64,000 nt of DNA from an uncultured Planctomycetales bacterium (GCA_964572155.1 CAZNDZ010000001.1:718290-782289), one strand, 5' to 3'; positions 17,021 to 49,100 are shown, numbered from the stretch's first letter. Numbers and translations are program-made. Notes: a model not told the origin generated them from the sequence alone.

Positions 17021-17072
17021 AGCATCTCCTAATCGTTGATTGTATATTAGCTTAAGAATGGAGATAAGCGAA

Positions 17073-17573
17073 ATGAATATCAAATTTTTTGTTTGTGCAT
17101 GCATGCTAACTGCCTTGACCGCGTGTGCAACACCCATTGCCCAAAAAGGTTCCTTAGGATATTCTGATAAACGCAATATTGTGGTGGTTGGGGAAAATGT
17201 TGAAGAATCAATCGCGGAATATTATCAAAAAAAATATGATGCGCTGGTCTGGTTTACCCCATATCAGGGCAGCGTAGCAAATTTCACAAATAATATCGTA
17301 GAATCAGGCATTGGTCCAAGCAAACCCATGCGATCATTGATTGTTCAGCTAAAGAGCATGAATCAAACCATGGGCCGTTGGCAAGTTTATATCCCAAAGA
17401 TCGCGGAATCATATTTTATCCGCACATTAAAGCATATGGAAAATGGGTCCTTGTCTAAAGCACGCGGATCGGTGATCCTCATTGATTCGAATCATGCCCC
17501 AGAAGTAGAAAAGGAAGTTAATCGTGTCAGCGACGGAAGTTTCTTCGTTGAGTTTGAATCAGGCAAGGAGTAG
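17073..17573 (+). CDS. Lipoprotein of unknown function.
   Basis: The signal MNIKFFVCACMLTALTAC contains a lipobox, L-T-A-C. GGAGA lies 7 nt upstream of the ATG at 17073. Confidence 0.55.
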   Translation: MNIKFFVCACMLTALTACATPIAQKGSLGYSDKRNIVVVGENVEESIAEYYQKKYDALVWFTPYQGSVANFTNNIVESGIGPSKPMRSLIVQLKSMNQTMGRWQVYIPKIAESYFIRTLKHMENGSLSKARGSVILIDSNHAPEVEKEVNRVSDGSFFVEFESGKE

Positions 17574-17577
17574 AAAA

Positions 17578-17651
17578 CGCGCCTCGAGGGACTCGAACCC
17601 CCAACCCTTTGTTCCGAAGACAAATGCTCTATCCAGTTGAGCTAGAGGCGC
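17578..17651 (-). tRNA. tRNA-Arg, anticodon TCG.
   Basis: The reverse complement folds as a cloverleaf. The acceptor stem is GCGCCTC/GAGGCGC. The D-arm is GCTC-AACTGGATA-GAGC. The anticodon stem TTTGT/ACAAA carries the loop CTTCGGA, with anticodon TCG. The T-arm is GGGGG-TTCGAGT-CCCTC. No CCA is encoded. Confidence 0.75.
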
Positions 17652-17667
17652 AATTCAAGGCTATAAT
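17637..17667 (+). promoter_or_regulatory. Possible promoter giving a leaderless transcript for the 17673 gene: TTGAGC-N19-TATAAT.
   Basis: A perfect TATAAT lies at 17662-17667, only 5 nt before the ATG at 17673. There is no room for a Shine-Dalgarno. The -35-like TTGAGC at 17637-17642 overlaps the tRNA on the other strand. Confidence 0.3.
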
Positions 17668-17672
17668 CTATC

Positions 17673-19676: not shown

Positions 19677-19683
19677 CATAAAT

Positions 19684-19712
19684 TTGCATAAAGCGTTTCC
19701 CCATGCTACACT
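19684..19712 (+). promoter_or_regulatory. Candidate sigma70 promoter: TTGCAT-N17-TACACT.
   Basis: It lies about 50 nt upstream of the 1,513-aa secreted protein gene. A further CATAAT sits at 19716-19721. Confidence 0.3.
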
Positions 19713-19763
19713 TTCCATAATTTCGTTAGCGCCAAAATACCCTAAATATAAAGAGGTTACGTG

Positions 19764-22700: not shown

Positions 22701-24302
22701 ATCAGGATCAAATACATCGCCAACCGATTGAAGTCAAGAGATTTGCAGAATGTTGAAGATGCGCTGTTTGGTGTTGATGGGGTTGAGCAAGTTACAGAAC
22801 AAGCGGGATCGATTGTCGAAGATGCTAAGGAAAGATTCCTAAATATTGAAACTGGTGAGTTTCTAACAGCAGATCAAGTCTTAACACAATTGAAGAATTA
22901 TCGTTGGTTTGTTGTAGGTCTAGAAGGTGGTGAGATCTTAAATATTGTTGAGCCAAGGTTAGCGGCAATGAAGCCAGGCATTCAATCAATTCAAGATGCG
23001 TTGGGTGTTCAATTAAAAGTGCGCATGGGTGAAGGTTTTGTAAAGCTTACGGATGGATTGAAATCATTGGGAAAGGTTGATGTTATAAGTAAGCCAGAAG
23101 GGGGATTTTTAGTGACAATTGTTATGGATCATCGACCGTATGAAGATCCTTTGAAGTTCTATGCGGAAGCTGTTGCAGCTTTTATTGCACAATTTACATA
23201 TAATTTCAGGCAATATTACACGGCGGAAGTTAAATCATATGAAAGACGGGTATTGGCAAGAGATGGTTCGAAAAGAATGTATCAAATCGTTATCGATCCT
23301 GTAACAAGTAACGCTGATGCGGCGATGAAGAGTGTGATGGTTTCCAAAAGAGATTTTCAATCATTTCATGAATATTTGGACAAACTATTAAAGAAGGAAT
23401 TACAAGTTGAGAGTTATAAAATCGCTGGAGAAACCGTGGTAGTTATTCCTGTTAGTTTTATGCCTGATAATGTTCTTGAATATATGGAAGCTATTGCAGA
23501 TAAATTTAATGTTAGATTGCAGCGGCTTAATAATGCTTCCTATTATTTTGTTCCTAATAGATTGCGATATTTTCTTGGGACAACCAATGGCAATGCAGAA
23601 TACATGGGAAGAAAAATAGCTCCCCTGACAAAATATTTAAACGCATTAAACGCAGAGTTAACTGCAAATATCAACCATAAATTTAACCCTCCAATTGATT
23701 TAAACGGTATACACATTGATGCCGCGATGTCTCATTATGTTGATAGTCGTCAAGAATTATTGTTAAGAGGCGGGATTGCGAAAATTAGTAAAGCAGTTGG
23801 TTATGAAGTGCAGAGTACAACGCTCTCAGATGTAAAAAATGGCTATGTTTTATCAATAGCAACGCCGACCAGAGAAGAAAGCAAGGCGGTGTTAGATAAA
23901 CTTTTGGCTTACGCAACAAATGAAGATGTGAAGAATAATTATGTCATAGAACTTTTAAGAGTGCCTCAAGAGGTGGAGTTCATGGGTTCTAAATATTTTA
24001 ACGTGATGTTTAAGTTAACGTTAAAAACATCAGGCCCTGAGGCTGATAAAGATGACTCCAACGTCATAAGTTTTAATGCTAATAAGACGAAGGCTGACGC
24101 TGCCATGAACGGTGGTATTGATCTTAAGGATGCTGCGGCTAATACGAATGTTCGCAAAGAGGGGCAAGGGGTTGAGTTTGTTGTGGATCAGGCCTTGATT
24201 GAGCGGGTGCGTCGGGAGGGGATTAATAGTTTGACGCCGGTGATCTTGCGCATTGATTCATCCGTCAATATCTGGCCTTTGTTGGGATTGAAAAATCCTT
24301 GA
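19764..24302 (+). CDS. Large secreted protein of unknown family (~1,512 aa) with a recurrent (I/V/F)xDAAM motif.
   Basis: The signal peptide is MFKKSLCSIISIIFLFTTLTPVHKAQA. AAGAGG lies 8 nt upstream. DAAM occurs six times, at about aa 377, 513, 873, 1107, 1235 and 1440. One DAAQ variant occurs at about aa 563. A hydrophobic segment, SLAFIAVITVLVYNMY, sits near aa 595 and is followed by a charged coiled coil. Confidence 0.6.
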   Translation: MFKKSLCSIISIIFLFTTLTPVHKAQAQSLLGLPEPGTMVSLSAAYQPAILKGITVHKDNPFMFDFLVDVGQDNLTGDSLKNEGDKLIKYFMATLAVPEKDLWVNLSPYEKDRTVPEALGQTDMGRDLLAQDYILKQLTASLIYPEKELGKKFWDNVYQKTQAKYGNVNIPVNTFNKVWIMADRAEVFERNQTAFVTASHLKVLLETDYLALQKSEDSKSILRSPTQKQLGEAGSSQNEIAKKVIREIILPELEHEINTGKNFANLRQIFNSIILASWYKNNLKQSLLNETYSNKSTVKGIDIDDKTIKQQIYERYLQAYKKGVFNYIKETPEGAPKKYFSGGVLGSLKITKANEAMAAAAFNENNKLANFHVKFDAAMLNVAEIKALTNELLRVTVNNKNITLLNGFNSLGGNVMVSPDNEGGFYIILSVDWEKNVVNHDGAAATTPNPAFHPVNREKIEAAINVFIKNFLKDHRDTYSIESLRFISPEVKPGQLRMDIHRIHITSPFVEPSDAAMQADHIKNVVEKLGDLVAEPGVNIFVRQTSEGIEVHFPAGSFDAAQVSELQDLIAKMQSIKFKVSEEGYHFIAPAAKSLAFIAVITVLVYNMYQQTKAENKRAREAYAAKLADQKRIAAEREATLRKSAHEALMMLALIIEGADFDQVMLHVKAIANSFKSNPYIIEELERLDKEVFLNDGAHREKWNLLYHAMMEIISPLSVGEVPSEDFVGLRNEIAAFLRTSGHSSDVTVQRVQRQYKALTSLMKFDVGPFWNPGAPVFYRYAISMSEMENNGLSDKNKPYFLELFKKFDLKVVTLGGKEYLVPQQWYRSFGSETQRMIYLDKKLLLVRLYLRKVFNKLNDSIESGSNKRINLKNIELDAAMQALDTNVLSGSSVFKRFDILVQIKTAVNAVLKGQRYFLDTQYSKDDVEQLINAYNGQALDVNKVALLSEASDSHKTNVLYLSSSNDALRKWVDQELKEIRIKYIANRLKSRDLQNVEDALFGVDGVEQVTEQAGSIVEDAKERFLNIETGEFLTADQVLTQLKNYRWFVVGLEGGEILNIVEPRLAAMKPGIQSIQDALGVQLKVRMGEGFVKLTDGLKSLGKVDVISKPEGGFLVTIVMDHRPYEDPLKFYAEAVAAFIAQFTYNFRQYYTAEVKSYERRVLARDGSKRMYQIVIDPVTSNADAAMKSVMVSKRDFQSFHEYLDKLLKKELQVESYKIAGETVVVIPVSFMPDNVLEYMEAIADKFNVRLQRLNNASYYFVPNRLRYFLGTTNGNAEYMGRKIAPLTKYLNALNAELTANINHKFNPPIDLNGIHIDAAMSHYVDSRQELLLRGGIAKISKAVGYEVQSTTLSDVKNGYVLSIATPTREESKAVLDKLLAYATNEDVKNNYVIELLRVPQEVEFMGSKYFNVMFKLTLKTSGPEADKDDSNVISFNANKTKADAAMNGGIDLKDAAANTNVRKEGQGVEFVVDQALIERVRREGINSLTPVILRIDSSVNIWPLLGLKNP

Positions 24303-31331: not shown

Positions 31332-31673
31332 ATGGGATTTGTCATCATCTTCATTGTGGTGCAGGTCATTGTTGCGGGCATCGTTGTTGTAGTTTTAAAC
31401 AATAAGCTTAAGAAAGAATTAATCGAAGCTGCATTAGAAAATCTGCATAGCAATATCACGTCGCAAACACAGGGAGAAATTCGGATCATCAGCGCGCATG
31501 AACTTGATCCACAATTGCAAGCACGCATTATTGGTATTGTAAAACGCAAAACATCTGCAGCGACGGTTGTTTTTTCTTTAGATCAGGGTATCAAAAGTGG
31601 CTTGATCATTCATGCAGATACGTTGGTGTTAGATTTTAGTTTGGCAAATCGTTTGAAAGCGTTAACGACATGA
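31332..31673 (+). CDS. Small membrane-anchored protein of unknown function.
   Basis: It has one N-terminal TM helix (VIIFIVVQVIVAGIVVVVL). It is 113 aa and is translationally coupled to the downstream GT2 gene. Confidence 0.4.
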   Translation: MGFVIIFIVVQVIVAGIVVVVLNNKLKKELIEAALENLHSNITSQTQGEIRIISAHELDPQLQARIIGIVKRKTSAATVVFSLDQGIKSGLIIHADTLVLDFSLANRLKALTT

Positions 31674-32386
31674 CAAAAATTTTGATCATTGTGCCTGCAT
31701 ATAATGAAGCAGGCAATGTGGGCAATGCGATTGACCAGATCCGCAAATCTTCTATTGCATGTGATGTTTTAGTCGTCGATGATGGCTCGATAGATACAAC
31801 AGCGCAAGAAGCTAAAGATCATGGGGCGATTGTATTAAGCCTTCCATTTAACTTAGGTATCGGTGGTGCGGTTCAAACTGGTTTTAAATATGCCCGCGCC
31901 CATGGCTATGATATTGCTGTTCAGATCGACGGAGATGGTCAACATGACCCTGCATATTTAGCAGCTTTGATCTTACCGATTGAAGAACATAAGGCAGACC
32001 TAGTCATAGGTAGTCGATTTTTAGTGCCTTCAGATGGATTTAAATCGACTTTTACGCGCCGCGTCGGGATTTCATTCTTTGTGTATTTGATCAATGTATT
32101 AACGGGTACGCGCATCACTGATCCCACGTCGGGATTCAGAGCACAAAACAAGAAAATGATCGATGCCTTCGCAACATATTATCCACATGATTTTCCAGAA
32201 CCTGAAGCAGTGGTCGTTGCACAACGTGCGCATGCGGTGATTCAAGAGATCCCAGTTGTGATGCGTGCGCGCCAAGGAGGCAGTAGTTCCATTGGAAGTT
32301 TGAAAAGTGTTTACTATATGTTAAAAGTCACGGTGGCAATTTTATTACACATGATTCGTCGACGTGATAATGCGGGGCAAATATGA
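31670..32386 (+). CDS. GT2 glycosyltransferase, polyprenyl-phosphate sugar synthase-like (Dpm1/GtrB/ArnC-like).
   Basis: The N-terminal GT-A motifs are ILIIVPAYNEAGNV and VLVVDDGSIDTT. It is 238 aa and soluble. Confidence 0.7.
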   Translation: MTKILIIVPAYNEAGNVGNAIDQIRKSSIACDVLVVDDGSIDTTAQEAKDHGAIVLSLPFNLGIGGAVQTGFKYARAHGYDIAVQIDGDGQHDPAYLAALILPIEEHKADLVIGSRFLVPSDGFKSTFTRRVGISFFVYLINVLTGTRITDPTSGFRAQNKKMIDAFATYYPHDFPEPEAVVVAQRAHAVIQEIPVVMRARQGGSSSIGSLKSVYYMLKVTVAILLHMIRRRDNAGQI

Positions 32387-32736
32387 GCATAAAACTCTTA
32401 GCGATTGCTATCTCATCTATTTTATTTTTATATGTATTGGATCTAGTCCGTCGACATAAGTTAACTTTTAAATATGCATTAGCATGGTTATTTGTTTCTG
32501 CAGCAGCAGTGGTGTTGGCCATCTTTCATAAATTTCTTTTTGCCGTCGCAGCATATTTAGGTTTTGAATTGCCCAGTAATTTTATTTTCTTCACGCTGAT
32601 GTGTGTGTTTGTTATTTTAAGTTTATTGCTGACTGTTTTTTTGTGTCAGCAGAATGAACGTAATAATTGCATGGCCCAAAAGATCGCCATCTTAGAATCT
32701 GAAATAGCGGATATTAAAAAGAAAAAATCACCGTGA
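32383..32736 (+). CDS. Small four-helix membrane protein, a partner commonly found next to Dpm1-like GT2s (DUF2304/GtrA-like).
   Basis: It is 117 aa with three or four TM helices. It sits between two GT2 genes with overlapping stop and start codons. Confidence 0.4.
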   Translation: MSIKLLAIAISSILFLYVLDLVRRHKLTFKYALAWLFVSAAAVVLAIFHKFLFAVAAYLGFELPSNFIFFTLMCVFVILSLLLTVFLCQQNERNNCMAQKIAILESEIADIKKKKSP

Positions 32737-33719
32737 TCGCAAGTGTTATCATCCCTGCATACAATGCCTCAGCCACCATTGATCAAACTTTACGTGCGCT
32801 AGGTGCCCAAGATTTTAAACAGCCTTTTGAAGTTATTGTTGTCAATGATGGTTCAACAGATCAAACAGCCCGCATTATCGCAAAACATCCTCACGTTACA
32901 TTGATCAACCAGAAAAACGCCGGGCCCGCATGTGCGCGTAATACAGGGGCAAGTCACGCTAAAGGCGAGTTTCTATGCTTTACGGACTCAGATTGTATCC
33001 CACATCCGGATTGGATATCGTTGCTCATCAATGGTTTTCGTGATGAATCTGTTGCTGCTGTCTGTGGCAGCTATGGTATTGCCAATAACAATAGCCTTTT
33101 AGCCCGTGGTATTCACGCAGAAATCATCTACCGACATAGCCATTTAGTGCCAGATTTTCCTAAAGTCTTTGGCAGTTATAACTTTTGTATCAGAAAGTCG
33201 GTTTTCGATCATTTGGGTGGTTTTGATACAAAGTACCGGAATGCCAGTGGGGAAGATAACGATTTAAGCTATCGCGTGAACCGCTTGGATAAGAAAATCT
33301 ACTTTGAACGCAAAGCCTTGGTAGATCACTATCATACAACGCAGGTTGTTAAATACCTTAAAGAGCAGTTTCGTCATGGCTTTTGGCGCACCGCCATGTA
33401 TGCCGATCATCCGCAAATGGTTAAGGGAGATAGTTATACGTTTTGGAAAGACATGGTGGAGGTGCCCATTAGCGCATTAGTTGTGTTGTGTTTAATGTTA
33501 GTCATTGTTGGCTTCATGACAATAAATTCTTTTATATATTTTTTAATCTTTCCGTTTTTGATTTTCGAAATAATATTTTCATTGATCATGATGAAAAATA
33601 AATTCGAAAGTTTTTATTACGGTTTTATTATTTTTTTTCGCGCCTTCGCGCGCACTTTTGGTTTGTCGACGGGGATTTTATATTTTTTCTGTACAAAAAT
33701 AAAAAAAAATTTTAAATAA
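32733..33719 (+). CDS. GT2 glycosyltransferase with a C-terminal membrane anchor.
   Basis: The motifs VIIPAYNASATIDQTL and VIVVNDGSTDQT are present. Two or three C-terminal TM helices follow. Confidence 0.7.
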   Translation: MIASVIIPAYNASATIDQTLRALGAQDFKQPFEVIVVNDGSTDQTARIIAKHPHVTLINQKNAGPACARNTGASHAKGEFLCFTDSDCIPHPDWISLLINGFRDESVAAVCGSYGIANNNSLLARGIHAEIIYRHSHLVPDFPKVFGSYNFCIRKSVFDHLGGFDTKYRNASGEDNDLSYRVNRLDKKIYFERKALVDHYHTTQVVKYLKEQFRHGFWRTAMYADHPQMVKGDSYTFWKDMVEVPISALVVLCLMLVIVGFMTINSFIYFLIFPFLIFEIIFSLIMMKNKFESFYYGFIIFFRAFARTFGLSTGILYFFCTKIKKNFK

Positions 33720-33722
33720 AGG

Positions 33723-33750
33723 TTGAAACACCTTTCATAAATGATATTAT
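33723..33750 (+). promoter_or_regulatory. Candidate promoter of the secretin operon: TTGAAA-N16-TATTAT.
   Basis: It lies in the 83-nt intergenic region before the 33803 gene. Confidence 0.3.
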
Positions 33751-33802
33751 GAGAATGTTATTTTAATTAAATTGTAACGAATTGTGTTTAATGAGGTTAA
33801 CT

Positions 33803-34399
33803 ATGGCCAAAGAATCCGCAGAAGAAAAGTTGCTAAAGATGATGCAGAAGTCAGGTGCTCCTGTTGCCGCTTCAACTGCGTCACCTGTTGCGGCAGCAAA
33901 AAAATCTGGGCCAAAGTTTGATTTCAATTTTACAATCGGACACTTAAATCAAATTTTATTTATTGGTATTGTTGCATGCATCATTGGTTTAGTTTATGAA
34001 ATGCGTAGTGGCATGCAATTGATTGGTACCAATGTTGATTTAGAGGGTGATGTTAAATTGTCTCGTTCTGTTATGGATATCGCAATGCCCACCAATAACG
34101 ATGTTAAGTTTTATACCGATAAAATTAATACCAGAAATATCTTTCGTCCTTACGAAGCGCCGACGGCTAAAGCGGCGGTTAAGTATAACTTAGCCAAGCG
34201 TTTGTCAAAATTCAAATTGGTTGGTGTAGCATGGCTTGATCTTCCAGAAACAGCGTCGATCATGATCGAAGATACAGCAAATAAAACAACGTTTTTCTTG
34301 AAACAAGGTGAACAATTAGAAGGCGTGACCGTCAAGACCATCTATACGGATAGAGTGGTTTTCGGTGACGAAAATGAGGAGACGACAATTAAGCTATGA
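33803..34399 (+). CDS. Bitopic inner-membrane protein upstream of the secretin, a candidate secretin-interacting component (GspC/PilP-like).
   Basis: The ATG at 33803 has GAGG 6 nt upstream. It has a cytoplasmic N-terminus, one TM helix (ILFIGIVACIIGLVY) and a ~130-aa periplasmic beta-rich domain. The functional call is positional only. Confidence 0.35.
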   Translation: MAKESAEEKLLKMMQKSGAPVAASTASPVAAAKKSGPKFDFNFTIGHLNQILFIGIVACIIGLVYEMRSGMQLIGTNVDLEGDVKLSRSVMDIAMPTNNDVKFYTDKINTRNIFRPYEAPTAKAAVKYNLAKRLSKFKLVGVAWLDLPETASIMIEDTANKTTFFLKQGEQLEGVTVKTIYTDRVVFGDENEETTIKL

Positions 34400-36036
34400 T
34401 TACCCACATCCTAAAACCCAAAGTCTTCTTTTTCATTCTGGCAGGGATGGTTTTGTCCGCGGTTGCCTTGGGCACCGTACGCGCTCAGAATGAACAAGAA
34501 TCAGTCGCCATCGCTGCCGATGATAATGCCGGCGCCGAGCTTCCAAAGCCAATCATTTTAACGGAACCCAAAGAACCGTTAGCCGAGCGTTTATTGCGCA
34601 AAATCACGCTTGATGTGCGCGACATGAATGTCGTCGATGTTATCAAGTTCTTGGCGCAAAAAGGGGAATTCAATGTGATTGTTTCCCCAACCGTTGATGG
34701 CCGCACCACGGTTTTATTACATGGCGTAGGCATCAAAGATGCGCTTGATATCGTTGTTATTTCCAATCGTTTGGCATATCACATTGAAAATGACATCATC
34801 CAAATTATGTCTGGTGCAGAATATGAAGCGATGTATGGTAAAGGGTTTGGCGATAAAACCGAAGTTGCGATCATTCACTTACAATATTCCAAACCAAGCT
34901 ATGTTTTAGCTGCGTTAGATAACATGAAAAGTAATATCGGTAAAATCATCATTGATGAAGATACCGGTTCTGTTGTTTTAGTAGATACGCCTTCTTCTAT
35001 AGCATTAATGAAGAAAGCTATTAGCCAAATCGAACAACCACTTGATACATTAGTTTACGATTTAAAATATGCTAAGGCAGATGTTGTTGCTGAAAAATTA
35101 CGTTCCCGTATTGATGCTAAAGCAGTTGGTTCAGTTACATCCGACGAGAGAACCAATCAAGTCTTAGTGCGCGTTTTTCCTGGACGTACAGATGAAGTTA
35201 AAAAATTAATCGATCAGCTAGATGAGCCTACCAAGGAAGTCTTGATTGAAGCGCGTGTTTTGCAAGTCATCTTGAAACCAAATTTTGATACTGGGATTGA
35301 TTGGACTGCGATCTTTAGCAAGAATGGAAAAGAAAAATTCAACATCAAGAGTATTTTAGAAAATTCAAATACTGATTCATCATTTGGTCAAATTGGTGTT
35401 GGCACAATTAATGCTGGAGATTTTGCAACTCAAATTAAGGCGTTGCAACAAGTCAGTGATACAAAAATCTTATCAACGCCTCAAATTTTAGTTACTAATA
35501 ATGATGAAGCCAATATCCATATTGGTGATACTGTTCCCTATATAGTATCAACAACCAATGGTACAGGTGACAATGCTATTAAAAGTGAAGACGTTCGTTT
35601 CATTGATGTAGGTTTGAAATTAAAAGTTATTCCTACCATCAATGACGATGGCATGGTGACCATGCGTCTAAAACCAGAAATCTCGTCGGTAGTTGCACGT
35701 GTTAGTTCGCAATCTGGCGGTATCCCACAAGTAAATAAAACAGAAGTTGAAACATCCGTTATGGTGCAAGATGGCATGACCATTGTCATGGCTGGTTTAC
35801 GCAAAGAAGATAAAACCCATACCAAAAAAGGTGTACCAGGCCTCATGAATGTTCCTTATTTAGGGAATTTATTTGGCAGCACGTCAGATTCAATCACCTC
35901 AACTGAAATTGTTATCTTAATTACGCCTCATATTGTCAAGGGAACGGATGATTTCAATAAGGTTAATGGCACTATTAAACCATCAAAGAAATACGATCCA
36001 AGTGTTCAAATGAAAGAACCGGCCGCGAAAAAATAA
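34396..36036 (+). CDS. Secretin (GspD/PilQ/RcpA superfamily outer-membrane channel).
   Basis: It has a signal peptide. An N0-like domain is present (ITLDVRDMNVVDVIKFLAQKGEFNVIV). The C-terminal secretin domain ends with the canonical VPGLMNVPYLGNLFGS...IVILITPHIV. Confidence 0.85.
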   Translation: MITHILKPKVFFFILAGMVLSAVALGTVRAQNEQESVAIAADDNAGAELPKPIILTEPKEPLAERLLRKITLDVRDMNVVDVIKFLAQKGEFNVIVSPTVDGRTTVLLHGVGIKDALDIVVISNRLAYHIENDIIQIMSGAEYEAMYGKGFGDKTEVAIIHLQYSKPSYVLAALDNMKSNIGKIIIDEDTGSVVLVDTPSSIALMKKAISQIEQPLDTLVYDLKYAKADVVAEKLRSRIDAKAVGSVTSDERTNQVLVRVFPGRTDEVKKLIDQLDEPTKEVLIEARVLQVILKPNFDTGIDWTAIFSKNGKEKFNIKSILENSNTDSSFGQIGVGTINAGDFATQIKALQQVSDTKILSTPQILVTNNDEANIHIGDTVPYIVSTTNGTGDNAIKSEDVRFIDVGLKLKVIPTINDDGMVTMRLKPEISSVVARVSSQSGGIPQVNKTEVETSVMVQDGMTIVMAGLRKEDKTHTKKGVPGLMNVPYLGNLFGSTSDSITSTEIVILITPHIVKGTDDFNKVNGTIKPSKKYDPSVQMKEPAAKK

Positions 36037-36048
36037 CGGCCTCAACGT

Positions 36049-36837
36049 ATGGAGAAAAGTATGGGCAAAAAAATAATGATTAATTTAACAAGTATGCTTC
36101 GCATGACCGTGCTCATGTTTGCGGTTTTTGCCTTATCGGCAAACGCTTCCGTGAATGCGGAAGACTTGCCAGATACCATGCCTCCATCGGAAGCGGAAGC
36201 GGCTGATCCTGCGGTTCAAGCAGCTCAAGAACGTGAACAATTTATTAAAGAAATCCGTCGTGTTGAGAATTTAAATCGTAAGTACACCGATCAAATCGAT
36301 GAGATCAAGGGCTTGCTCGCAGAAAAAGATGCAGATTTTCAAAAGCGCATGAAAGAATTGGAAGACAAAATGGCTTCCCAACAAAATGATGAAGGTAAAA
36401 AGAGTGTTGCTAAAGAACAAGAAACACAAATGTCTAAAGAATTAGAAAACAAAACTAATGAAATGTTGTCTAAGGGTGGTGATTTAGATCCAGAAGATCA
36501 ACAATTCAAAGAAGAATTAGCCAAAGCACATTACAACATGGGTAATATTTACTTTGAACGCGGTGAATATCAACGTGCTGTCGTCGAATATTACCAAGCA
36601 GTTGATTTAGTTCCTAATGATGCAGATACACATTACAATTTAGCTTTTATCAGTGGTGAATATTTAGGAGATCAAGAAACAGCGTTGAAGCATTATCAAT
36701 GGTACTTATATCTCAAACCAAACGCTGATGATAAAGATGCTATCAACGAAAAAGTTTTACAAGCAAAGATTCACTTAAGAGCAAAGATTGATTCACCGTT
36801 AGATAAAGATAATGGCAATTATAATTTGACCCGTTAA
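36049..36837 (+). CDS. Secreted TPR / coiled-coil protein, a possible secretin-associated (pilotin/PilF-like) factor.
   Basis: It has a signal peptide and a long charged coiled coil. TPR repeats are present (AHYNMGNIYFERGEYQRAVVEYYQAVDLVPNDADTHYNLAF). Its stop overlaps the next start. Confidence 0.5.
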   Translation: MEKSMGKKIMINLTSMLRMTVLMFAVFALSANASVNAEDLPDTMPPSEAEAADPAVQAAQEREQFIKEIRRVENLNRKYTDQIDEIKGLLAEKDADFQKRMKELEDKMASQQNDEGKKSVAKEQETQMSKELENKTNEMLSKGGDLDPEDQQFKEELAKAHYNMGNIYFERGEYQRAVVEYYQAVDLVPNDADTHYNLAFISGEYLGDQETALKHYQWYLYLKPNADDKDAINEKVLQAKIHLRAKIDSPLDKDNGNYNLTR

Positions 36838-38429
36838 TGAGAATTTTGATGCAAAAAATGTCTTATTCTATGCAAAAATTAATATTAACTGGTTTGTTGG
36901 TTTGCGGATTTATTCCGACGGCAATGGCCAATAATTTGACTGTCTCCAATGTGGCCTTAGGTTCACGTGACCCAGGCACCAAAACATTGGTGATTAATTT
37001 CAATGTGGCATGGGAAAATTCATGGCGCAATAAAATTAACCACGATGCTATTTGGTTGACTCTGCGCCTCAACAGCTCGACAACTTCTCCAGTATATAAG
37101 AAGCTTTGCCAAGTTTCAGCTAGTGGCATCAATCCAGAAGGTTCTTCTATTAGCAATAACAACAGCCTGGAATTATACGTCCCCGAAGATAGAAAAGGTT
37201 TATTCTTACGTCGAAATGCCTATAGCAACATTGGCAATATTGCTACCACCAATGTTTCTGTCACGGTTAAATATGATTCTTGCGGTTTTACTGATAGCGA
37301 TAAAGTTAACGCAAGTGTTTTAGGTTTAGAAATGGTCTTAGTTCCACAAGGATCATTCTTTGCAGGTGATAATGATACAAGCACTGCTTCATTAGATCGT
37401 GGAACTGGTGATGCGCGTCCTTGGTCTATTAATAGTGAAAATCAAATTAGCGTTAGCAATGCAGGTGCCAATGGATACCGTTATGTTTCAAATAATAATG
37501 CTGGTGAATATGCAACGGGAACAACATTCAATGTTCCTGCCACATATCCAAAAGGTTACAAAGCGTTTTACGCGATGAAATATGAAATCACCGAAGGTCA
37601 ATGGGTTGAATTTGTTAATTCGTTAGCGACAGATGCAATGCGCATTAATCATGATATCACTGACAATAATCATAAAAATACAGACAGTGTTGTCAATCGT
37701 AATACGATCGCATGTTCTGGTTCACCGTTAACATGTTCAACAACACGTGCAGAACGTGCTGTAACATTTTTATCTTGGTCAGATGTAGCGGCCTTCTTGG
37801 ATTGGGCTGCGTTGCGTCCAATAACAGAATTAGAATTTGAAAAAGTCGCACGTGGTCCAGTGCTTCCATTAAATGGTGAATATGCATGGGGTTCAGCCAA
37901 TATTAGTGCAGCAACAACAATCAGCGGCAATGAAGATGGTACAGAGACCATCACCAATGGTGGTAATGCCAATGTTGGATTATCAACATTATCAGGCGGC
38001 GATGCCAATGATGGCGTAGATTATCAAACAGGCGCGTTACGCACTGGTATATTTGCGACGGAGAATTCAACACGTGAAAGCTCAGGTGCAAGCTACTACG
38101 GTGCGATGGAAATTTCAGGTAACGTAAAAGAATATGTTGTCACCGTCGGAAATGCTGCGGGTTTAAGTTTCACTGGCGTACATGGCGATGGGTATTTAAC
38201 ATCAACATCAGGTTATGAAGGCAATGCCGATGTAAATGCTTGGCCAGGGTTAGATGCTGTTGCAGCGCGAGGTGTCACAGGTGCAAATGGTTCTGGTTTA
38301 CGTGGTGGATCATGGGCAGATAATGTACAAGCATTGCGTGTTTCAGATCGTTCTCAAGCAGCGTTAACGGTTCATACAGCAAGTAATGATGCCGGTGGCC
38401 GCGGGGCAAGGACATATGATGGTAACTAA
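36837..38429 (+). CDS. Secreted protein with a C-terminal FGE-sulfatase (SUMF1/GldJ/GldK-like) domain, paralog A.
   Basis: It has a signal peptide. The SUMF1-family motifs are WAALRPITELEFEKVARGP and LRGGSWADN. The N-terminal ~250 aa are an unknown beta-rich domain. Confidence 0.6.
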   Translation: MRILMQKMSYSMQKLILTGLLVCGFIPTAMANNLTVSNVALGSRDPGTKTLVINFNVAWENSWRNKINHDAIWLTLRLNSSTTSPVYKKLCQVSASGINPEGSSISNNNSLELYVPEDRKGLFLRRNAYSNIGNIATTNVSVTVKYDSCGFTDSDKVNASVLGLEMVLVPQGSFFAGDNDTSTASLDRGTGDARPWSINSENQISVSNAGANGYRYVSNNNAGEYATGTTFNVPATYPKGYKAFYAMKYEITEGQWVEFVNSLATDAMRINHDITDNNHKNTDSVVNRNTIACSGSPLTCSTTRAERAVTFLSWSDVAAFLDWAALRPITELEFEKVARGPVLPLNGEYAWGSANISAATTISGNEDGTETITNGGNANVGLSTLSGGDANDGVDYQTGALRTGIFATENSTRESSGASYYGAMEISGNVKEYVVTVGNAAGLSFTGVHGDGYLTSTSGYEGNADVNAWPGLDAVAARGVTGANGSGLRGGSWADNVQALRVSDRSQAALTVHTASNDAGGRGARTYDGN

Positions 38430-38430
38430 T

Positions 38431-40050
38431 ATGTTAAAGAAAATTATGATTTTTAGCATCCTCTTATGCGCTGCACCTTTGGTGTATGCAAATAACTTAA
38501 ATATTTCTAATTTAAACGTCTCAACTGTAGATACAGCGTCGGGAACAATTAGCTTTACGTGTGATGTTACCCAAGATAATAGCTGGCGCAATAATAATAA
38601 TTTTGATGCCGTTTGGATGTTTATGAAATATTCAACCGATGCTGGACAAACATGGAGCCATGCCAGTATGTTTGGTTATGGTACGAATCCTGCAGGTTTT
38701 TCTGCCGGCAACAATTTTGCATTAGTTGTACCTAATGATGGCAAAGGATTCTTTTTACAACGTACAGATTTTGGAGCAGGTTCTATTACAGTAAAAAATG
38801 TAAAGTTTGTTTGGAATTATGCTCAAGATGGCGTGCCTGCCAATATCGCAACCGCTGCAAACACCATTCACAAAGCATTTGGTATTGAAATGGTTTATGT
38901 TCCACAAGGTGCATTTTATGCTGGTGATGGCAACAGCTCGTCAGATTTTCGTTTCAAGTCAGGAAGCAGTGACAATAATCCTTGGTACATTCAAGGAGAA
39001 AATGCGATTAGCACAACAAATAGTGCATCTAATGGATATTTCTATCAAAGCACGGGAGCAACAGGTGAAAATAATAGTGGCGATGCATTTTTGGTACCAG
39101 CTTCATATCCAAAAGGCTATGCACCATTTTATTTAATGAAATATGAATTAACTGAAGGACAATGGGTGAGCTTCTTTAATACATTATCAACAGCAGCAAA
39201 ATTAAATCGTGATATTACGTCTGCTAATTTAGGTGGAAAAAATTCTGATGGCGTTGTAAAACGTAATACCATTGCATGGGATTCAACTAATCCAACATTA
39301 CCAGCGACAACATTGCGTCCATCACGTCCAGTAAGTTTTGTATCATGGCCAGATGTTGCAGCCTATGCTGCATGGGCAGGTCTTCGTCCTATCACAGAAT
39401 TAGAATTTGAAAAAGCAGCGCGTGGCAAAGACATTGGTGCTAACGCTGATGAATTTGCTTGGGGTTCATCAAGTTATACAGCGATAGGCACAACAGATAT
39501 CACACCAAATCAAGATGAAGTAGGAACGGAAACATTAAATAGTGCTGCAAATTTAAATCGCAATTCATTGGGATTTAGTACGGGTGATGGGCGTAGTGGT
39601 GGGATTGCATCTACACAAGCAGGTCCAGTGCGTGTCGGCATCTTCGCCGCTGGCGCATCTAATCGTATTAGTTCTGGTGCAGGATTTTATGGCAACATGG
39701 AATTATCGGGCAATTTGGCAGAACCAGTTGTAACCATTGGTCGTACTCAAGGTCGTCAGTTCTTAGCATCACATGGTACGGGTGCATTAACGAGCTTATC
39801 AGGCTATGAAGGAAATGCTGCTAACACGGATTGGCCAGGCTTGGATAATGTGAATGCAAGCCGTGGTATTACAGGTACCGTTGGCATTGGTTACCGTGGG
39901 GGAGATTTTAATTCATCAAATATTCGCACCTATCAATTGTCGTCAAGAACATATGCAGCGAAAGATCCTGATTCTTTAGGATTTTATCAACGTTCCGATG
40001 CAGGGTTTGGTGTTAATCAGGGCGGCCGTTTAGGTCGCAGTGCGCCGTAA
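38431..40050 (+). CDS. Secreted protein with a C-terminal FGE-sulfatase (SUMF1/GldJ/GldK-like) domain, paralog B.
   Basis: It is collinear with paralog A; compare ANNLNISNLNVS with ANNLTVSNVALGS, and ITELEFEKAARGK and YRGGDFN. The ATG at 38431 starts the signal peptide MLKKIMIFSILLCAAPLVYA. The 38386 extension overlaps gene A. Confidence 0.6.
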   Translation: MLKKIMIFSILLCAAPLVYANNLNISNLNVSTVDTASGTISFTCDVTQDNSWRNNNNFDAVWMFMKYSTDAGQTWSHASMFGYGTNPAGFSAGNNFALVVPNDGKGFFLQRTDFGAGSITVKNVKFVWNYAQDGVPANIATAANTIHKAFGIEMVYVPQGAFYAGDGNSSSDFRFKSGSSDNNPWYIQGENAISTTNSASNGYFYQSTGATGENNSGDAFLVPASYPKGYAPFYLMKYELTEGQWVSFFNTLSTAAKLNRDITSANLGGKNSDGVVKRNTIAWDSTNPTLPATTLRPSRPVSFVSWPDVAAYAAWAGLRPITELEFEKAARGKDIGANADEFAWGSSSYTAIGTTDITPNQDEVGTETLNSAANLNRNSLGFSTGDGRSGGIASTQAGPVRVGIFAAGASNRISSGAGFYGNMELSGNLAEPVVTIGRTQGRQFLASHGTGALTSLSGYEGNAANTDWPGLDNVNASRGITGTVGIGYRGGDFNSSNIRTYQLSSRTYAAKDPDSLGFYQRSDAGFGVNQGGRLGRSAP

Positions 40051-43100: not shown

Positions 43101-46100
43101 AGATTTCACGGTTTTAACCAAGGCAGGCATCAACTGGACAGATTTTGGTGTGATTGGTAGAACGGGTATTAATTGGTATGACTTAAATGTATTTACAAAG
43201 TCAGGTATTAACTGGACAGATTTTGGGGTTTATACAAAGGTTAGTATCAATTGGGTTTCTTTAGCTTTGCAATCTACTAATGCTGTTAATTGGAACGACG
43301 TTGCCAAACTTTCTGCATCAAATGTTAACTGGAATTTCTTTTCTGCATTGTCTACGACCAATGTTAACTGGAATGACATTACCGTCTTAAGTAAGGCAGG
43401 CATCAATTGGAATGATATCGGTGTCTTAGCTGCCAATGGCGTCAATTGGAATGATCTTAATGTCTTAACTAAGGTTGGTGTTAACTGGAATGATTTTGCG
43501 GTCCTTGGCAAATCCGGTATCAATTGGAGAGATTTAGGCATATTAAGCACCGTTGCGATTAACTGGCAAGATTTTAATGTCATGTCAAAGACAGGTGTGA
43601 ATTGGGGCGATTTAAATCGCATGAGCAGCCTCGGCGTTAATTGGGCAGATTTAAATCGCATGAGTGCGTTAGGCGTTAATTGGGCAGATTTTAACGTATT
43701 AACGCGTTCTGGAATTAACTGGAATGATTTTGGTGTATTAAGCAAAACTGGTGTTAACTGGAATGACTTAGGCGTGTTAGCCAAGGCAGGCGTTAATTGG
43801 AATGATTTTGGAGTCTTAAGCAAGATAGGCATCAATTGGAACGATTTGAATGTTTTAAGTAAAGTTGGCACAAACTGGAGAGATTTTGCAGTATTAAGCA
43901 CTGTCGCTGTTAACTGGCAAGATATGAATGTGATTTCAAAGTCAGGAGTTAATTGGAATGACTTTGGTGTGTTATCAAAATCTGGTGTTAATTGGCAAGA
44001 TCTCAATGTCTTATCTAAAAATGGTATTAATTGGAATGAATTTGTCGTCTTAGGGCGCGCAGGTATTAATTGGCAAGATATCAATGTAATCAGCAAAGTA
44101 GGCGTTAACTGGTCAGATTTTAATGTATTATCCAGAAACGGTGTTAACTGGCAAGATTTGAATGTTTTATCAAAAGCAGGATTAAATTGGCAAGATTTCA
44201 ATGTTTTATCAAAATCAAGAGTCAACTGGCAAGACTTTACAGTTTTAAGTTCTGCAGCTATTAACTGGCAAGATATTAATGTTTTATCTAAGGCTGGTGC
44301 TAATTGGCAAGATCTAAATGTTTTAACTAAAGGTGGTGTCAATTGGCAAGATATTAATACCTTAACTAAAGCGGGTATCAACTGGCAAGATATGAACCAA
44401 TTGACCAGAACAGGTATTAATTGGCAAGATGTGAATGTATTAACAAAGACCGGCGTTAACTGGCAAAACTTTAATGTCTTAACTAGCTCAGGTATTAATT
44501 GGCAAGATTTAAATGTATTAAGCAAGACAGCAATTAATTGGAACGATTTTGGAGTTCTTGCGAAAGCTGGCGTTAATTGGAACGACTTAAATGTTCTTTC
44601 AAAATCTGGTGTTAATTGGAATGATTTTGGTGTCTTAAGTAAAAATGGTGTGAATTGGAACGACTTAAATGTTCTTACCCGCAGCGGCATTAACTGGAAT
44701 GATATGAATGCTCTTTCTAGAGCTGCAGTGAATTGGAATGATTTTAATGTTTTAACCCGCACATCTATCAACTGGCAAGATTTCACATCTTTGAGCAAAG
44801 CTGGCGTTAACTGGAATGATCTTAATGTTTTAAGTAAGACAGGTATTAATTGGCAAGATTTCAACGTGATAACAAGAACCAATGTTAACTGGCAAGATTT
44901 AAATGTTCTCTCAAAAGCTGGTGTTAATTGGAATGATTTCGGTGTATTAACAAACTCTAGCGTTAATTGGACAGGTCTCAATCTTTTAACAACAGCTGGA
45001 GTAAATTGGGCAAATCTAAACGTATTAAGTACAACAGGTGTTAATTGGGCTGATTTTGGTGTCTTAACAAAAATTGGTGTCAACTGGAGTGATTTGAATG
45101 TATTAACAAAATCTGGTGTGAACTGGCAAGATTTTGGCGTATTAAGTAAAGTGGGTGTTAATTGGCAAAATTTCAATGTATTAAGTAATGCAGGTATTAA
45201 TTGGAACGATATTGGTGTCTTAGCCAAAACAGGTATCAACTGGAATGACTTAAATGTCATGTCACGTACCGGCGTAAACTGGGGTGATTTAAATCGCATG
45301 AGCTCATTGGGTGTTAACTGGGCAGATTTAAATCGCATGAGCGGCTTAGGTGTGAATTGGGCAGATTTCACTGTCTTAACCAAGGCTGGCGTTAACTGGA
45401 ATGATTTTGGTGTCATGAGCCGCGTTGCAGCAAACTGGTATGATTTGAATGTCTTTACACGTGCAAGCATCAATTGGAATGATTTTGGTGTATTAGCGAA
45501 GGCAGGTATTAATTGGAATGACTTAAATGTTGTTACCAAAGCCAATGTTAATTGGAATGACTTTGCTGTCTTATCTAAGATTGGTGTTAACTGGCAAGAT
45601 ATGAATGTCTTGACCCGTAATGCTGTTAATTGGTCAGATTTTAGTGTCATGAGCCGTTCAAGTATTAATTGGCAAGGCTTAAATACATTAACAACCGCAG
45701 GCGTTAACTGGACAAACTTAAATGTTTTAAGTTCAACGGGTGTTAATTGGACAGATTTAGGCATTTTGACGACGACAGGTATTAATTGGCAAGATTTTAA
45801 TACTCTGAGTAAAGCTGGCGTCAATTGGAATGATTTAGGTGTTCTTTCTAAAACAAGCATAAATTGGCAAGATTTTACTGTACTTGGAAAAGCAGGAATT
45901 AATTGGAATAGCTTAGGCGTAATGTCTAAGGTTGGTGTCAATTGGAATGATTTCACTGTCATGAGCAGATCCAATGTCAATTGGGCCGATTTAAACAGCA
46001 TGAGCTCATTGGGTGTTAATTGGGCTGACTTAAATCGCATGAGCGGCCTAGGTGTGAACTGGCAAGATTTTACTGTATTAACTAAGGCTGGCGTTAACTG

Positions 46101-49100
46101 GAATGATTTTGGAGTAATGAGCCGTGTTGCAGTTAACTGGTCTGATTTTAACGTCTTAAGCAAGTCTGGTATCAACTGGTCAGACTTAGGTGTTTTAGGA
46201 AAAACAGGCATTAACTGGAATGACTTTAATGTATTGAGCAAGTCTTCTATTAATTGGAATGACTTAGGTGTTTTAGCAAAAGCCGGTGTCAATTGGAATG
46301 ACTTTAATGTATTAAGCAAGTCGGGTGTTAATTGGAACGACCTAAATGTTTTGAGCAAAGCAGGGGTAAATTGGAATGATATTAATGTCATCACAAGAGT
46401 TGGCGTAAATTGGAACGATTTTGTTGTCTTAGGTCGTGCTGGTGTTAACTGGAATGATTTTGGTGTGGTCAGTAAGACAGGTATCAATTGGAACGACTTT
46501 GGTGTTTTAGCCAAGGCTGGCATCAATTGGAACGACTTAAATGTCTTATCTAAAGTTGGCGTCAACTGGAATGATTTTGGAGTTCTTGGTAAAGCAGGGA
46601 TCAACTGGAATGATTTAAATGTCCTTTCACGTGCTGCAGTGAATTGGAGTGATATTAATGTCCTTTCCAAAATAGGTGTTAACTGGCAAGATTTGAATGT
46701 CTTAACTAAGACTGGTGTTAATTGGAGTGACATGGGCGCCTTAAGCAAGGCTGGCGTTAATTGGCAAAACATCGGCATCCTAAGCACTGTCGGTGTAAAT
46801 TGGCAAGATTTTAATACCTTAAGTAAGGCTGGTGTTAACTGGAATGACTTTGGCGTCTTATCAAAGGTTGGCGTCAATTGGAGTGATTTAAATGTCTTAA
46901 GTAAAACTGGTATCAATTGGAATGATTTTGGTGCTTTGTCAAAGATTGGTGTTAACTGGCAAGATTTAAATGTTTTAAGCAAGGCAGGTTTAAATTGGAA
47001 TGACATCGGTGTCTTAAGTAAAACTGGCATCAACTGGAATGACTTTGCTGTCTATTCTAAAGTTGGCATCAATTGGCAAGATTTTGGTGTGTTGTCAAAA
47101 GCTGGCCTAAACTGGACTGACTTTGGTGTCTTAAGTAAGACCGGTGTTAATTGGCAAGATTTAAATGTTCTTACCCGCAACGGCGTAAATTGGAACGATT
47201 TTGGTGTCTTAAGCAAAGCAGGAGTAAATTGGAATGATTTAAATGTATTATCAAAAATTGGTATTAATTGGTCAGATTTCAATGTCTTAACAAAATCCAG
47301 CATAAATTGGAATGACTTGAATGTCCTTTCAAAATCTGGCGTTAATTGGAATGATTTTGGAGTGCTTGCAAAAACAGGTGTTAATTGGCAAGATTTCAAT
47401 GTCTTAACAAGAACCGGAGTTAATTGGAACGATTTCGGAGTTATTTCTAAGGTAGGTGTTAATTGGCAAGACTTAAACACGTTAAGTAAGGTAGGCATTA
47501 ACTGGCAAGATTTTGCAGTCCTCGCAAAAACATCTATCAACTGGCAAGACTTTGCAGTCTTAGGCAAAGCCGGTGTTAACTGGAATGATTTTGGTGTCTT
47601 AAGTAAATCAGGTGTCAACTGGCAAGATTTGAATGTGATGAGCCGCAGCGCTGTAAATTGGGGCGACTTAAATCACATGAGCTCCGTTGGTGTTAATTGG
47701 GCAGATTTAAATCGCATGAGTGGTTTGGGTGTTAACTGGCAAGATTTCACCATCTTGACTAAGGCGGGCGTTAATTGGAATGACTTTGGTGTCATGAGCA
47801 AGGTTGGCGTCAACTGGAGCGATCTTAATGTGGTCAGCAAGATCGGTGTCAATTGGAGTGACTTTACTGTTCTTTCAAAGATTGGCGTGAATTGGCAAGA
47901 TTTGAACGTAATGTCTAAGGTTGCCGTTAACTGGGGTGACTTTGCCGTCTTAAGTAAGACCAGCATTAATTGGAACGACATGAATGTTCTTTCCCGTAAT
48001 AATATCAACTGGAATGATTTTGGTGTGATGAGCAAAGTTGGTGTTAATTGGAATGACATGAATGTTTTAAGCAAAGCCAACATCAATTGGTATGACATGA
48101 ATGTCTTAAGTAAAATTGGTGTTAATTGGCAAGATTTGAATGTTGTTAGCAAGACAGGTGTTAACTGGAATGATTTTGGTGTCATGTCTAAGGTTGGGGT
48201 TAATTGGAATGACTTAAATGTCTTAAGCAAGTCTGGTATCAATTGGCATGATTTCGGTGTGTTAACAAAGTCTGCTGTTAACTGGTCAGGGCTTAATTCC
48301 TTATCAACAGCAGGTGTCAACTGGTCTAACTTGAATTTATTAAGTTCTGCTAATGTCAACTGGACCGACTTAGGTATTTTAAGTAGCGCAGGTGTTAACT
48401 GGAATGACATGGCTCGTTTAACCACAACTGCGATCAATTGGAATGATATTAATGTCTTAACCCGCACTGGTATTAATTGGAATGATTTGAATGTCCTCTC
48501 TAGAATTGGCATGAACTGGGCAGATTATTCTGTTCAAACCCGCGCTGGTATCAATTGGTATGACTTAAATGTGATGAGCCGCACCGGTGTAAACTGGGGT
48601 GATTTAAATCTTATGAGCTCATTGGGTGTTAACTGGGCAGATTTAAATCGCATGAGTGGATTGGGTGTCAATTGGCAAGATTTCAATGTATTGACCAAGG
48701 CAGGCATTAATTGGAATGACTTTGGTGTGATGAGTAAAGTTGGCGCTAATTGGAACGACTTAAATGTTCTAACAAAAGTCGGCATCAACTGGATGGATGT
48801 AAGCGTTCTTGGAAAAACAGGTATTAACTGGCAAGATTTAAATACTTTAAGTAAGTCTGGAATTAATTGGAATGACTTTGGTGTGTTAAGCAAGATTGGT
48901 GTTAACTGGAACGACTTGAATGTCTTAAGCCGTACTGGTGTAAACTGGAATGATGTTGGCGTTCTGTCTAAGACCGGTGTCAATTGGCAAAACATGAATG
49001 TCTTAAGTAATGTAGGTATCAATTGGAACGATATCGGAGTGCTTTCCAAAAATGGTGTTAATTGGAACGACTTAAATGTGCTTACAAAATCTGGCATCAA

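Follow-up and report, generated by a model that had tools for sequence, protein, structure and literature searches.

The stretch of DNA considered here, hereafter ‘the window’, consists of 64,000 nucleotides from an assembly labelled uncultured Planctomycetales bacterium (GCA_964572155.1, CAZNDZ010000001.1:718290-782289). Of concern is an operon of five genes, one of them encoding a secretin, along with the giant, repeat-built gene that directly follows. Window coordinates are used throughout (Table 1), with positions in other loci given along with the name of the locus. Open reading frames (ORFs) and Pfam matches agree with what a first-pass annotation, based on the sequence alone, had proposed: The operon encodes, in order, a bitopic ‘partner’ protein, a secretin that is short, a secreted TPR protein, and two proteins with domains of the formylglycine-generating enzyme (FGE) type, here FGE1 and FGE2. 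All five genes are on the + strand, and all five products, as read from their translations, possess either a signal peptide or a transmembrane segment. The tight coupling claimed for these genes is seen as well. That is, the partner and secretin genes overlap as ATGA, 12 nt separate the secretin and TPR genes, the TPR and FGE1 genes overlap as TAATG, and a single nucleotide lies between FGE1 and FGE2. The operon also ends where it had been said to end, as from the FGE2 stop at 40050 to the giant gene's ATG at 40105 there are 54 nt, with an AAGGG ribosome-binding site and no terminator-like site. The start previously proposed for the operon, 33723, is the position of a promoter-like site, with the promoter scan overall at chance level (24 sites found versus 22 expected from shuffles).

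Table 1. Features of the window, with those of the operon and of the giant gene given first.
Feature	Coordinates	Strand	Remarks
Bitopic partner	33803-34399	+	198 aa from ATG; mechanical ORF start is the TTG at 33782
Secretin	34396-36036	+	546 aa
TPR protein	36049-36837	+	262 aa
FGE1	36837-38429	+	530 aa
FGE2	38431-40050	+	539 aa; alternative upstream ATG at 38386 gives 554 aa
Giant gene	40105-64000	+	truncated by window end; open ORF of at least 7,965 codons
13-residue repeat array	40990-63630	+	579 in-phase copies; spacing and consensus analysis
1,443-nt higher-order block	53716-58003	+	about three tandem copies; diagonal self-comparison scan
Promoter-like site, TTGAAA-16-TATTAT with TG	33723-33750	+	upstream of operon; weak evidence
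113-aa protein (transmembrane segment plus OSCP/delta-like), then GT2, DUF2304, GT2	31332-33719	+	kept beside the operon in relatives

The secretin matches Pfam Secretin (PF00263) at 3.3e-49 and Secretin_N, over two stretches, at 8.6e-22, and thereby belongs to the secretin superfamily. Its layout consists of a signal peptide, an N0-like domain, two Secretin_N domains, and a C-terminal secretin domain. Among solved structures, 26 secretins match at E <1e-5, the best of them being XcpQ/GspD of P. aeruginosa (5wln, E 4e-36), with an alignment that takes in both N0-N1-N2 (query residues 71-281) and the secretin domain. Next come structures of PilQ at about 1e-31, RcpA (8odn) at 2e-16, and the secretins of type III secretion systems (T3SS) at 1e-10. 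The NCBIfam models are less discriminating, as those for PilQ (TIGR02515, 237.6 bits versus a cutoff of 284.35) and GspD (TIGR02517, 237.3 bits versus 351.35) essentially tie, while MshL (TIGR02519) yields 173.1 bits versus a cutoff of 250.2. No AMIN domain was found by Pfam, nor are there a lipobox or any cysteine, and the lack of cysteine means that the protein is not a lipoprotein. The pilMNOP genes that go with a PilQ-type secretin are not found upstream, where instead there are glycosyltransferases; homologues of PilMN and PilO are found in relatives, far downstream. Assignment to the RcpA/CpaC secretins of Tad systems was rejected, given the much weaker RcpA match than that to GspD along with absence of Tad genes from both the window and syntenic loci. 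At E <1e-10 the secretin has 678 relatives, the top 120 of which are 62-89% identical, and those which are named are from Omnitrophota. The window, that is, is Omnitrophota DNA.

The partner protein is more difficult to place. Its sole Pfam match is a weak one, to T2SSC (E 3e-4, 21 bits versus a cutoff of 27), and its sole profile match among PDB structures is to the HR domain of GspC (7oio, E 0.37). Of 38 orthologues, 28 match T2SSC (best E 1e-7) and seven match T2SSB, and alignment shows a shared cytoplasmic N-terminus, MAKE(S/T)AEEKLLK, then a single transmembrane segment, the motif RNIFxPY, and a beta domain at the C-terminus. The partner showed no PDZ domain. These matches lend moderate support to the partner being a linker of GspC/GspB type which lacks the PDZ domain. 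In approximately one-third of related loci, a gene for an AAA_22 ATPase of 300 aa, absent from the window, precedes that of the partner. This ATPase is of the GspA/ExeA/MshM family, scoring 190 bits against TIGR03015, which is under the cutoff. On the other side of the secretin, the TPR protein (TPR_11, 1.5e-12) adjoins the secretin in 70 loci. It consists of a signal peptide, a coiled-coil half, and a TPR half, with neither cysteine nor lipobox, and its weak matches to PilW and Tgl are far under cutoff. It may be a secretin accessory in the manner of PilW, Tgl, or MshN.

FGE1 and FGE2 are colinear paralogues, 45% identical, which match the Pfam FGE-sulfatase family at 1.4e-12 and 2e-16, respectively. 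Both have a signal peptide (by eye without a canonical lipobox), an N-terminal beta-sandwich, and then a divergent FGE/C-type-lectin-like domain, of which just 55 or so residues align to solved FGEs (E 3e-7). The beta-sandwich of FGE2, residues 24-157, is modelled with confidence (pLDDT about 90) and the FGE-like part is modelled poorly. A fold search with this model found nothing significant, more than half of that model being of low confidence. The pair are not formylglycine-generating enzymes. Particularly, the catalytic cysteine pair of FGEs lies near the C-terminus, a position taken here from human FGE, and FGE1 has no cysteine after residue 300 nor FGE2 any after residue 44. Across the catalytic region, furthermore, 38 orthologues have no column in which cysteine is conserved. 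As the repeat region of the neighbouring giant protein also contains no cysteine, a formylglycine-generating role was rejected. Rejected too was identity with GldK/PorK or GldJ from type IX secretion systems (T9SS), as there was no GldK or GldJ NCBIfam match at E ≤0.01. The FGE pair is hypothesized instead to be periplasmic or surface accessory proteins, or binding proteins, that are non-catalytic and possess a C-type-lectin-like fold.

The giant gene extends beyond the window's end. As seen over the 7,965 aa available, its product begins with a Sec signal peptide and about 290 aa of N-terminal region (Ig-like by eye, with no family match), after which come the repeat array and a Ser/Thr-rich tail, and within this length no transmembrane segment was found. 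The repeat consensus is K-t-G-(I/V)-N-W-n-D-(L/F)-(N/G)-V-L-S, in which the Asn and Trp are invariant, with spacings of exactly 13 residues in 573 of 578 cases. In the DNA this appears as a 39-nt period with only 64-71% nucleotide matches, along with a 78-nt sub-period, and this low degree of matching implies an array that is old and constrained rather than recently expanded. The higher-order block is a different matter: Its 1,443 nt equal 481 aa or 37 repeats, and its copies are 100% identical in nucleotides over at least 900 nt (at least 300 aa), which could mean either that unequal recombination expanded the array recently or that the assembly was collapsed or duplicated here. GC skew across the giant-gene region is very high (0.25-0.30). 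Minus-strand ORFs of up to 1,276 aa (e.g., 43230-47033 and 56637-60467) tile the giant gene from 41184 to 63530; these were rejected as genes, being shadows of a stop-free repeat.

AlphaFold2 modelling of 26 repeats, with 44 in-register segments serving as alignment, gave an all-beta structure with two strands per repeat (mean pLDDT 70.9, pTM 0.67), though just one of the five models was good. Foldseek found no significant match to this model, with the best (E 0.1) being to beta-helix tailspikes and to pectate-lyase-like proteins. The giant protein, going by this model, is likely a long, thin, beta-solenoid-like fibre. Among orthologues the tail closes with a coiled coil that carries the conserved motif VVVK(T/A)W(Y/F)ES. 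The window's tail region found no homologue when searched against a large protein collection; by tblastn it is 35-49% identical to the tails of relatives in fetched loci. One of these, L097, has 116 residues remaining beyond what can be aligned to the window, which would place the window's end roughly 115-125 codons before the giant gene's stop. The full gene thus is estimated at approximately 8,080-8,090 codons. A complete orthologue of 7,686 aa is found on a 95.6-kb contig, and there are complete short ones as well of 868 aa (L084) and 1,324 aa (L056), so that orthologues span 868 to about 8,090 aa. The fibre's ‘head’ also varies by lineage, that of the window being an unassigned domain and those of L056 and L060 a lectin domain, Laminin_G_3.

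What surrounds the operon was compared using a secretin-anchored scan, with one genome per GTDB species, which gave 78 species-level loci that were then summarized as a tblastn matrix. The order partner-secretin-TPR-FGE1-FGE2-giant gene is present in about 50 of these 78, that is, wherever contigs are sufficiently long, save for a few variants. In full, this order runs S41 peptidase, GT2, DUF2304, GT2, in some loci AAA_22, partner, secretin, TPR, FGE1, FGE2, and giant gene. The ORF downstream of FGE2 encodes the same 13-residue Asn-Trp (NW) repeat each time and mostly reaches the end of the contig, i.e., assemblies break at the giant gene because of that repeat ORF. Secretin and giant gene therefore are adjacent across dozens of species-level loci, the opposite of their never being linked. 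The FGE pair is missing in lineages L056, L060, and L063. Three paralogous, signal-peptide-bearing proteins of about 190 aa take the place of the FGE genes in L056 (13046-18868), and an IS200-like transposase stands where they would be in L060 (12982-18000), with the fibre of both having the lectin head. Separately, L015 (JAYTXU010000048.1) possesses a second secretin, at 9974-11599 and 69% identical, which is flanked by heptosyltransferase and malic enzyme genes and has neither partner, TPR, nor FGE genes nor a fibre gene beside it. The same metagenome-assembled genome carries a normal locus (L008).

The first-pass annotation viewed the operon as a secretin system that lacks an ATPase and pseudopilins. 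As far as what is upstream goes this was accurate, since Pfam scans of all upstream ORFs of at least 150 aa found no ATPase, platform, or pilin of a type II secretion system (T2SS), type IV pilus, or Tad system. What lies beyond the giant gene is a different story. L084 (GCA_016201795.1), where the fibre gene has just 868 codons, shows both sides within 21.6 kb taken from an 82.5-kb contig: secretin operon, fibre gene, a gene for a 435-aa protein, F-type ATPase genes, and an ATPase gene combining T2SSE and MshEN domains. L056 is a second two-sided contig, with secretin, TPR, 1,324-aa fibre, a homologue (p455) of that same protein, here called p434, and F-type ATPase alpha. A second scan, this one of metagenome loci and anchored on the beta subunit of the F-type ATPase, gave 78 more loci. 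In L105, a tail of NW repeats is followed by p434, by F-type ATPase alpha, epsilon, c, a 76-aa protein, delta, gamma, and beta, and then by the T2SSE-MshEN ATPase, T2SSF, Peptidase_MA_2, a T2SSG pilin, two N-methyl minor pilins, T2SSK, a PilM-PilN fusion, PilO, and a TPR protein. This order recurs, in the same orientation, across dozens of the beta-anchored metagenome loci.

Of the T2SS-like proteins in this downstream set, only the major pilin exceeds an NCBIfam cutoff, that of GspG (145 bits versus 88.85). The ATPase scores 552 bits as GspE and 551 as PilB (GspE cutoff, 630.25), the platform protein 324 as GspF (cutoff 424), and the minor pseudopilin 69 as GspK (cutoff 130), with GspM also under its own cutoff; each of GspE, GspF, GspK, and GspM nevertheless is the best or joint best score among alternatives. 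A secretin or GspC was found in the downstream half of none of the 78 loci, nor was any second, PilT-like ATPase, as there is a single GspE-type ATPase per locus. NW repeats are present upstream of p434 in 35 of the 36 loci with room to show them. The F-type ATPase beta gene directly precedes the T2SSE ATPase in both L084 and L105, and the pattern of ATPase followed by pilus-type genes is present in 63 of 78 loci. The p434 protein, always encoded directly after the fibre (L105 4712-6016), matches no family; it bears a signal peptide along with a transmembrane segment at its C-terminus, and may serve the coiled-coil tail of the fibre as an anchor or chaperone. The F-type ATPase cluster itself (L105 6028-11422; L084 15577-20980) consists of seven genes in the unusual order alpha, epsilon, c, a protein of 75-76 aa, delta, gamma, beta, with no recognizable a subunit. 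By NCBIfam, its alpha and beta exceed the cutoffs of the ordinary models, atpA and atpD, and score lower with the models for Mycoplasma gliding (408 bits versus 600 and 423 versus 850).

The secretin operon thus appears to be an ‘orphan’ because the window ends inside of the giant gene. Relatives do carry, after that gene, a GspE/PilB-type ATPase, GspF, GspG, GspK, PilMN, and PilO, and the idea of a secretin system without ATPase and pseudopilins is not supported. The annotation had also stated that its reading would be refuted by a complete, conventional T2SS or type IV pilus locus elsewhere to which this secretin clearly belongs, and what relatives carry largely amounts to such a refutation. 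As the halves are complementary, with the upstream one supplying a secretin and a GspC/GspB-like linker and the downstream one supplying all of the other core parts, they may be viewed as one split, T2SS-like machine. The five genes, that is, probably represent the periplasmic and outer-membrane half of such a machine, split around a giant repeat fibre which would be its likely cargo. The fibre is a candidate cargo, or indeed appendage, because it has a Sec signal, lacks membrane segments, and is found inside of the cluster in nearly every species. Presumably the window's own genome continues in the same manner.

How might such a machine work? The partner's HR-type domain would dock onto the N0 domain of the secretin, thereby tying a GspD-class secretin to the inner membrane, with the TPR protein serving perhaps as the secretin's accessory and the FGE pair perhaps as periplasmic or surface accessory or binding proteins. 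The inner-membrane half would consist of the GspE/PilB-type ATPase, GspF, GspG, minor pseudopilins, GspK, PilM-PilN in a GspL-like role, and PilO in a GspM-like role. The giant protein would be exported by Sec and form a long, thin beta fibre bearing a variable N-terminal head. By analogy with pili and with filamentous phages, the pseudopilus might then drive this fibre through the secretin, lengthwise. Lengthwise passage is suggested as a rod of 8,000 residues would be unable to fold within the periplasm.

Several points weigh against this T2SS-like interpretation. Classical T2SS substrates fold in the periplasm, which an 8,000-residue rod cannot do, making the mode of transport conjecture, and the link between fibre and machine is inferred. 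The secretin falls under the cutoff of every NCBIfam secretin model, and the GspC/GspB assignment of the partner is weak, with the window's copy under the Pfam cutoff and its PDB profile match at an E of just 0.37. The lone paralogous secretin of L015 implies that this clade's secretins may act outside of the cluster. The window furthermore stops before the downstream genes, and no near-identical contig that would extend it was found among 164 fetched loci, the only exact protein match to the window being a single 5-kb contig. Lastly, Seymour et al. 2023 describe the neighbouring genes as those of a type-4a pilus (PMC10066038).

Were that label to be taken literally, then the machine would be a surface pilus, of type-4a or instead of mannose-sensitive haemagglutinin (MSHA) type. 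The secretin would be its PilQ or MshL, and the fibre either a co-regulated neighbour or an adhesin that is exported otherwise. Consistent with such a pilus are the above-noted ties, of PilQ with GspD on the secretin and of PilB with GspE on an ATPase that possesses an MshEN domain, as too are the matches to Pfam families PilM, PilN, and PilO and the MSHA-like flanking of the secretin by a TPR protein and by an AAA_22 ATPase of the MshM/GspA family. Type-4a pilus genes, moreover, are co-located with a non-respiratory F-type ATPase in every Omnitrophota class, as reported by Seymour et al. 2023 (PMC10066038). The major pilin, however, exceeds the GspG equivalog cutoff, there is a homologue of GspK, PilM and PilN form one fused protein in the manner of GspL, no locus has a second ATPase of PilT type, and the secretin both lacks AMIN and scores well below the MshL cutoff. 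A pilus would also leave unexplained why a fibre gene is found between the halves in essentially every species. A surface pilus consequently is the less likely explanation, though one to be taken seriously.

A more expansive possibility, and a rather doubtful one, is that the secretin module, fibre, p434, F1Fo-like ATPase, and T2SS-like platform are together a single, undescribed surface organelle. The fibre in that case would be threaded through the secretin and held by p434 at its C-terminal coiled coil, rather than being released. The ATPases might extend or move it towards attachment to, or movement on, host cells, a loose parallel to the legs of Mycoplasma mobile, which are driven by an F1-ATPase. 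The FGE pair could then be a ring or tip partner, with some lineages instead having a lectin head fused to the fibre.

The first-pass annotation's principal suggestion was a stand-alone outer-membrane conduit or anchor for the fibre, one which is ATPase-free, with extracellular beta folding driving export. Conservation of secretin-fibre adjacency is in keeping with this, as is the existence in L015 of a lone paralogous secretin without partner genes, and a Sec signal plus all-beta repeat could in principle support vectorial export by folding. On the other hand, in the same cluster there is a T2SS-like set that lacks a secretin and a GspC, and which needs exactly those two. We also know of no secretin that works without a type IV filament, a T3SS, or a phage motor. 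A stand-alone conduit hence seems improbable.

The annotation's second suggestion, of a Tad-like pilus system with remaining genes elsewhere in the genome, was essentially right in that the remaining genes are elsewhere (downstream, in relatives), these being T2SS- and type-4a-pilus-like rather than Tad-like. Tad loci, going by the literature, possess their own RcpA secretin, the RcpA match here is far weaker than those to GspD or PilQ, and what synteny shows downstream is GspE, F, G, and K plus PilMNO, not TadA, B, C, Z, or Flp. A Tad system accordingly can be set aside as scarcely credible, even though Omnitrophota genomes commonly encode such systems (PMC10066038), and even though other giant genes have upstream of them loci in which rcpC is found along with gspD, gspE, and gspF (West-Roberts et al., 10.1101/2023.11.21.568195).

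Upstream of the operon, the window's first 33 kb carry ribF, a dcw cluster running from mraW to ftsA, two unassigned ORFs, gcvT/H/PA/PB, and genes for a lipoate ligase, an S41 peptidase, a small OSCP-like protein, and the GT2-DUF2304-GT2 set. That small protein (31332-31673, 113 aa) combines an N-terminal transmembrane segment with a C-terminal OSCP/ATP-synthase-delta domain, is syntenic in most related loci, and shows weak similarity (32% over 59 aa) to delta of the relatives' F-type ATPase. In the dcw cluster, within 15423-24302, ftsZ does not come after ftsA; what follows instead are ORFs at 17040-17573, 17673-19676 (667 aa), and 19761-24302 (1,513 aa), none with a Pfam or NCBIfam match. 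A Peptidase_MA_2 gene (11604-12383), in addition, is inserted into this cluster between murG and murC, and its product is a 33%-identical paralogue of the Peptidase_MA_2 which in relatives is encoded between gspF and gspG (L105 14405-15220).

Omnitrophota are tiny, uncultured, and probably host-dependent bacteria, and this locus may bear on how they attach to partner cells. It is conserved in all 78 of the species-level loci retrieved, where it adjoins housekeeping genes, and it joins three features which the literature has treated separately: giant genes, pilus/T2SS-like genes, and an unusual F-type ATPase cluster. Short natural fibres, i.e., of 868 and 1,324 aa, offer a tractable way into the question of cargo. 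There is a more general point as well, that a module which adjoins a gene running off the edge of a sequence does not warrant being described as an ‘orphan’.

Co-location of pilus genes and F-type ATPase is already published (PMC10066038), and in relatives the ATPase cluster lies within 10 kb of pilus genes, as in that paper's Omnitrophota locus. The downstream half very probably is the ‘symbiotic’ F-type ATPase/type-4a pilus locus of Seymour et al. Where the two descriptions differ is in the label, type-4a pilus there versus a major pilin that scores as GspG here. The portions of PMC10066038 consulted make no mention of the secretin operon, of the FGE pair, or of a giant gene of 13-residue repeats between secretin and ATPases. 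More broadly, within an incomplete coverage of the literature, neither the split arrangement of gspC/D, nor the FGE pair, nor the 13-residue-repeat fibre was found described, nor was anything found which joins Velamenicoccus with a secretin, or a secretin with FGE/GldK in a relevant way. West-Roberts et al. 2023 (10.1101/2023.11.21.568195) and a 2026 preprint (10.64898/2026.06.07.730766) do describe type II/type IV-like loci beside Omnitrophota giant genes, ones that are much larger. Those loci, however, have upstream more than ten subunits, including gspD, gspE, gspF, rcpC, and a prolyl isomerase, versus just partner and secretin here. Their giant proteins possess many transmembrane segments, as well as SecA-like or dockerin domains, whereas the one considered here bears a signal peptide and is built on a single repeat, of 13 residues, without transmembrane segments. 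Its length of about 8,000 aa also is under the 10,000-aa threshold of the 2026 preprint.

Among better known systems, Mycoplasma mobile gliding machinery, with its F1-type ATPase cluster and giant surface (leg) protein, and the PorK/GldK rings of T9SSs, with their non-catalytic FGE-fold proteins in an envelope machine, supply analogies only. Shared features are seen with the MSHA operon (the secretin MshL, AAA ATPase MshM, TPR protein MshN, and MshE) and with ExeA/ExeB (GspA/GspB), a pair that serves secretin assembly. The secretin is flanked by a TPR gene and, in about one-third of species, by AAA_22, some partner orthologues match T2SSB, and the downstream ATPase has an MshEN domain. Nevertheless, the MshL score is low, AAA_22 is absent from the window, gene order is different, and the major pilin is GspG-like. 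With the Proteobacterial T2SS (Gsp/Xcp) there is sharing of a secretin with N0, N1-type, and C-terminal domains, of a bitopic partner with a putative GspC/GspB-type HR domain, and, in relatives, of GspE, GspF, a GspG that is over cutoff, minor pseudopilins, GspK, GspL- and GspM-like proteins, and a single ATPase. The departures from that T2SS are that the cluster is split, with gspC/D upstream and gspE-gspM downstream of a gene of 868 to about 8,090 codons plus an F-type ATPase cluster; that the secretin is of only 546 aa and under the GspD cutoff; that the partner is without PDZ; and that TPR and two FGE-fold proteins have been added. In place of globular enzymes, lastly, the presumed cargo is a giant fibre of repeats. 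Should the fibre indeed be cargo, then a T2SS-type machine would here be handling a filament thousands of residues long, which would stretch current views of what may pass through a secretin.

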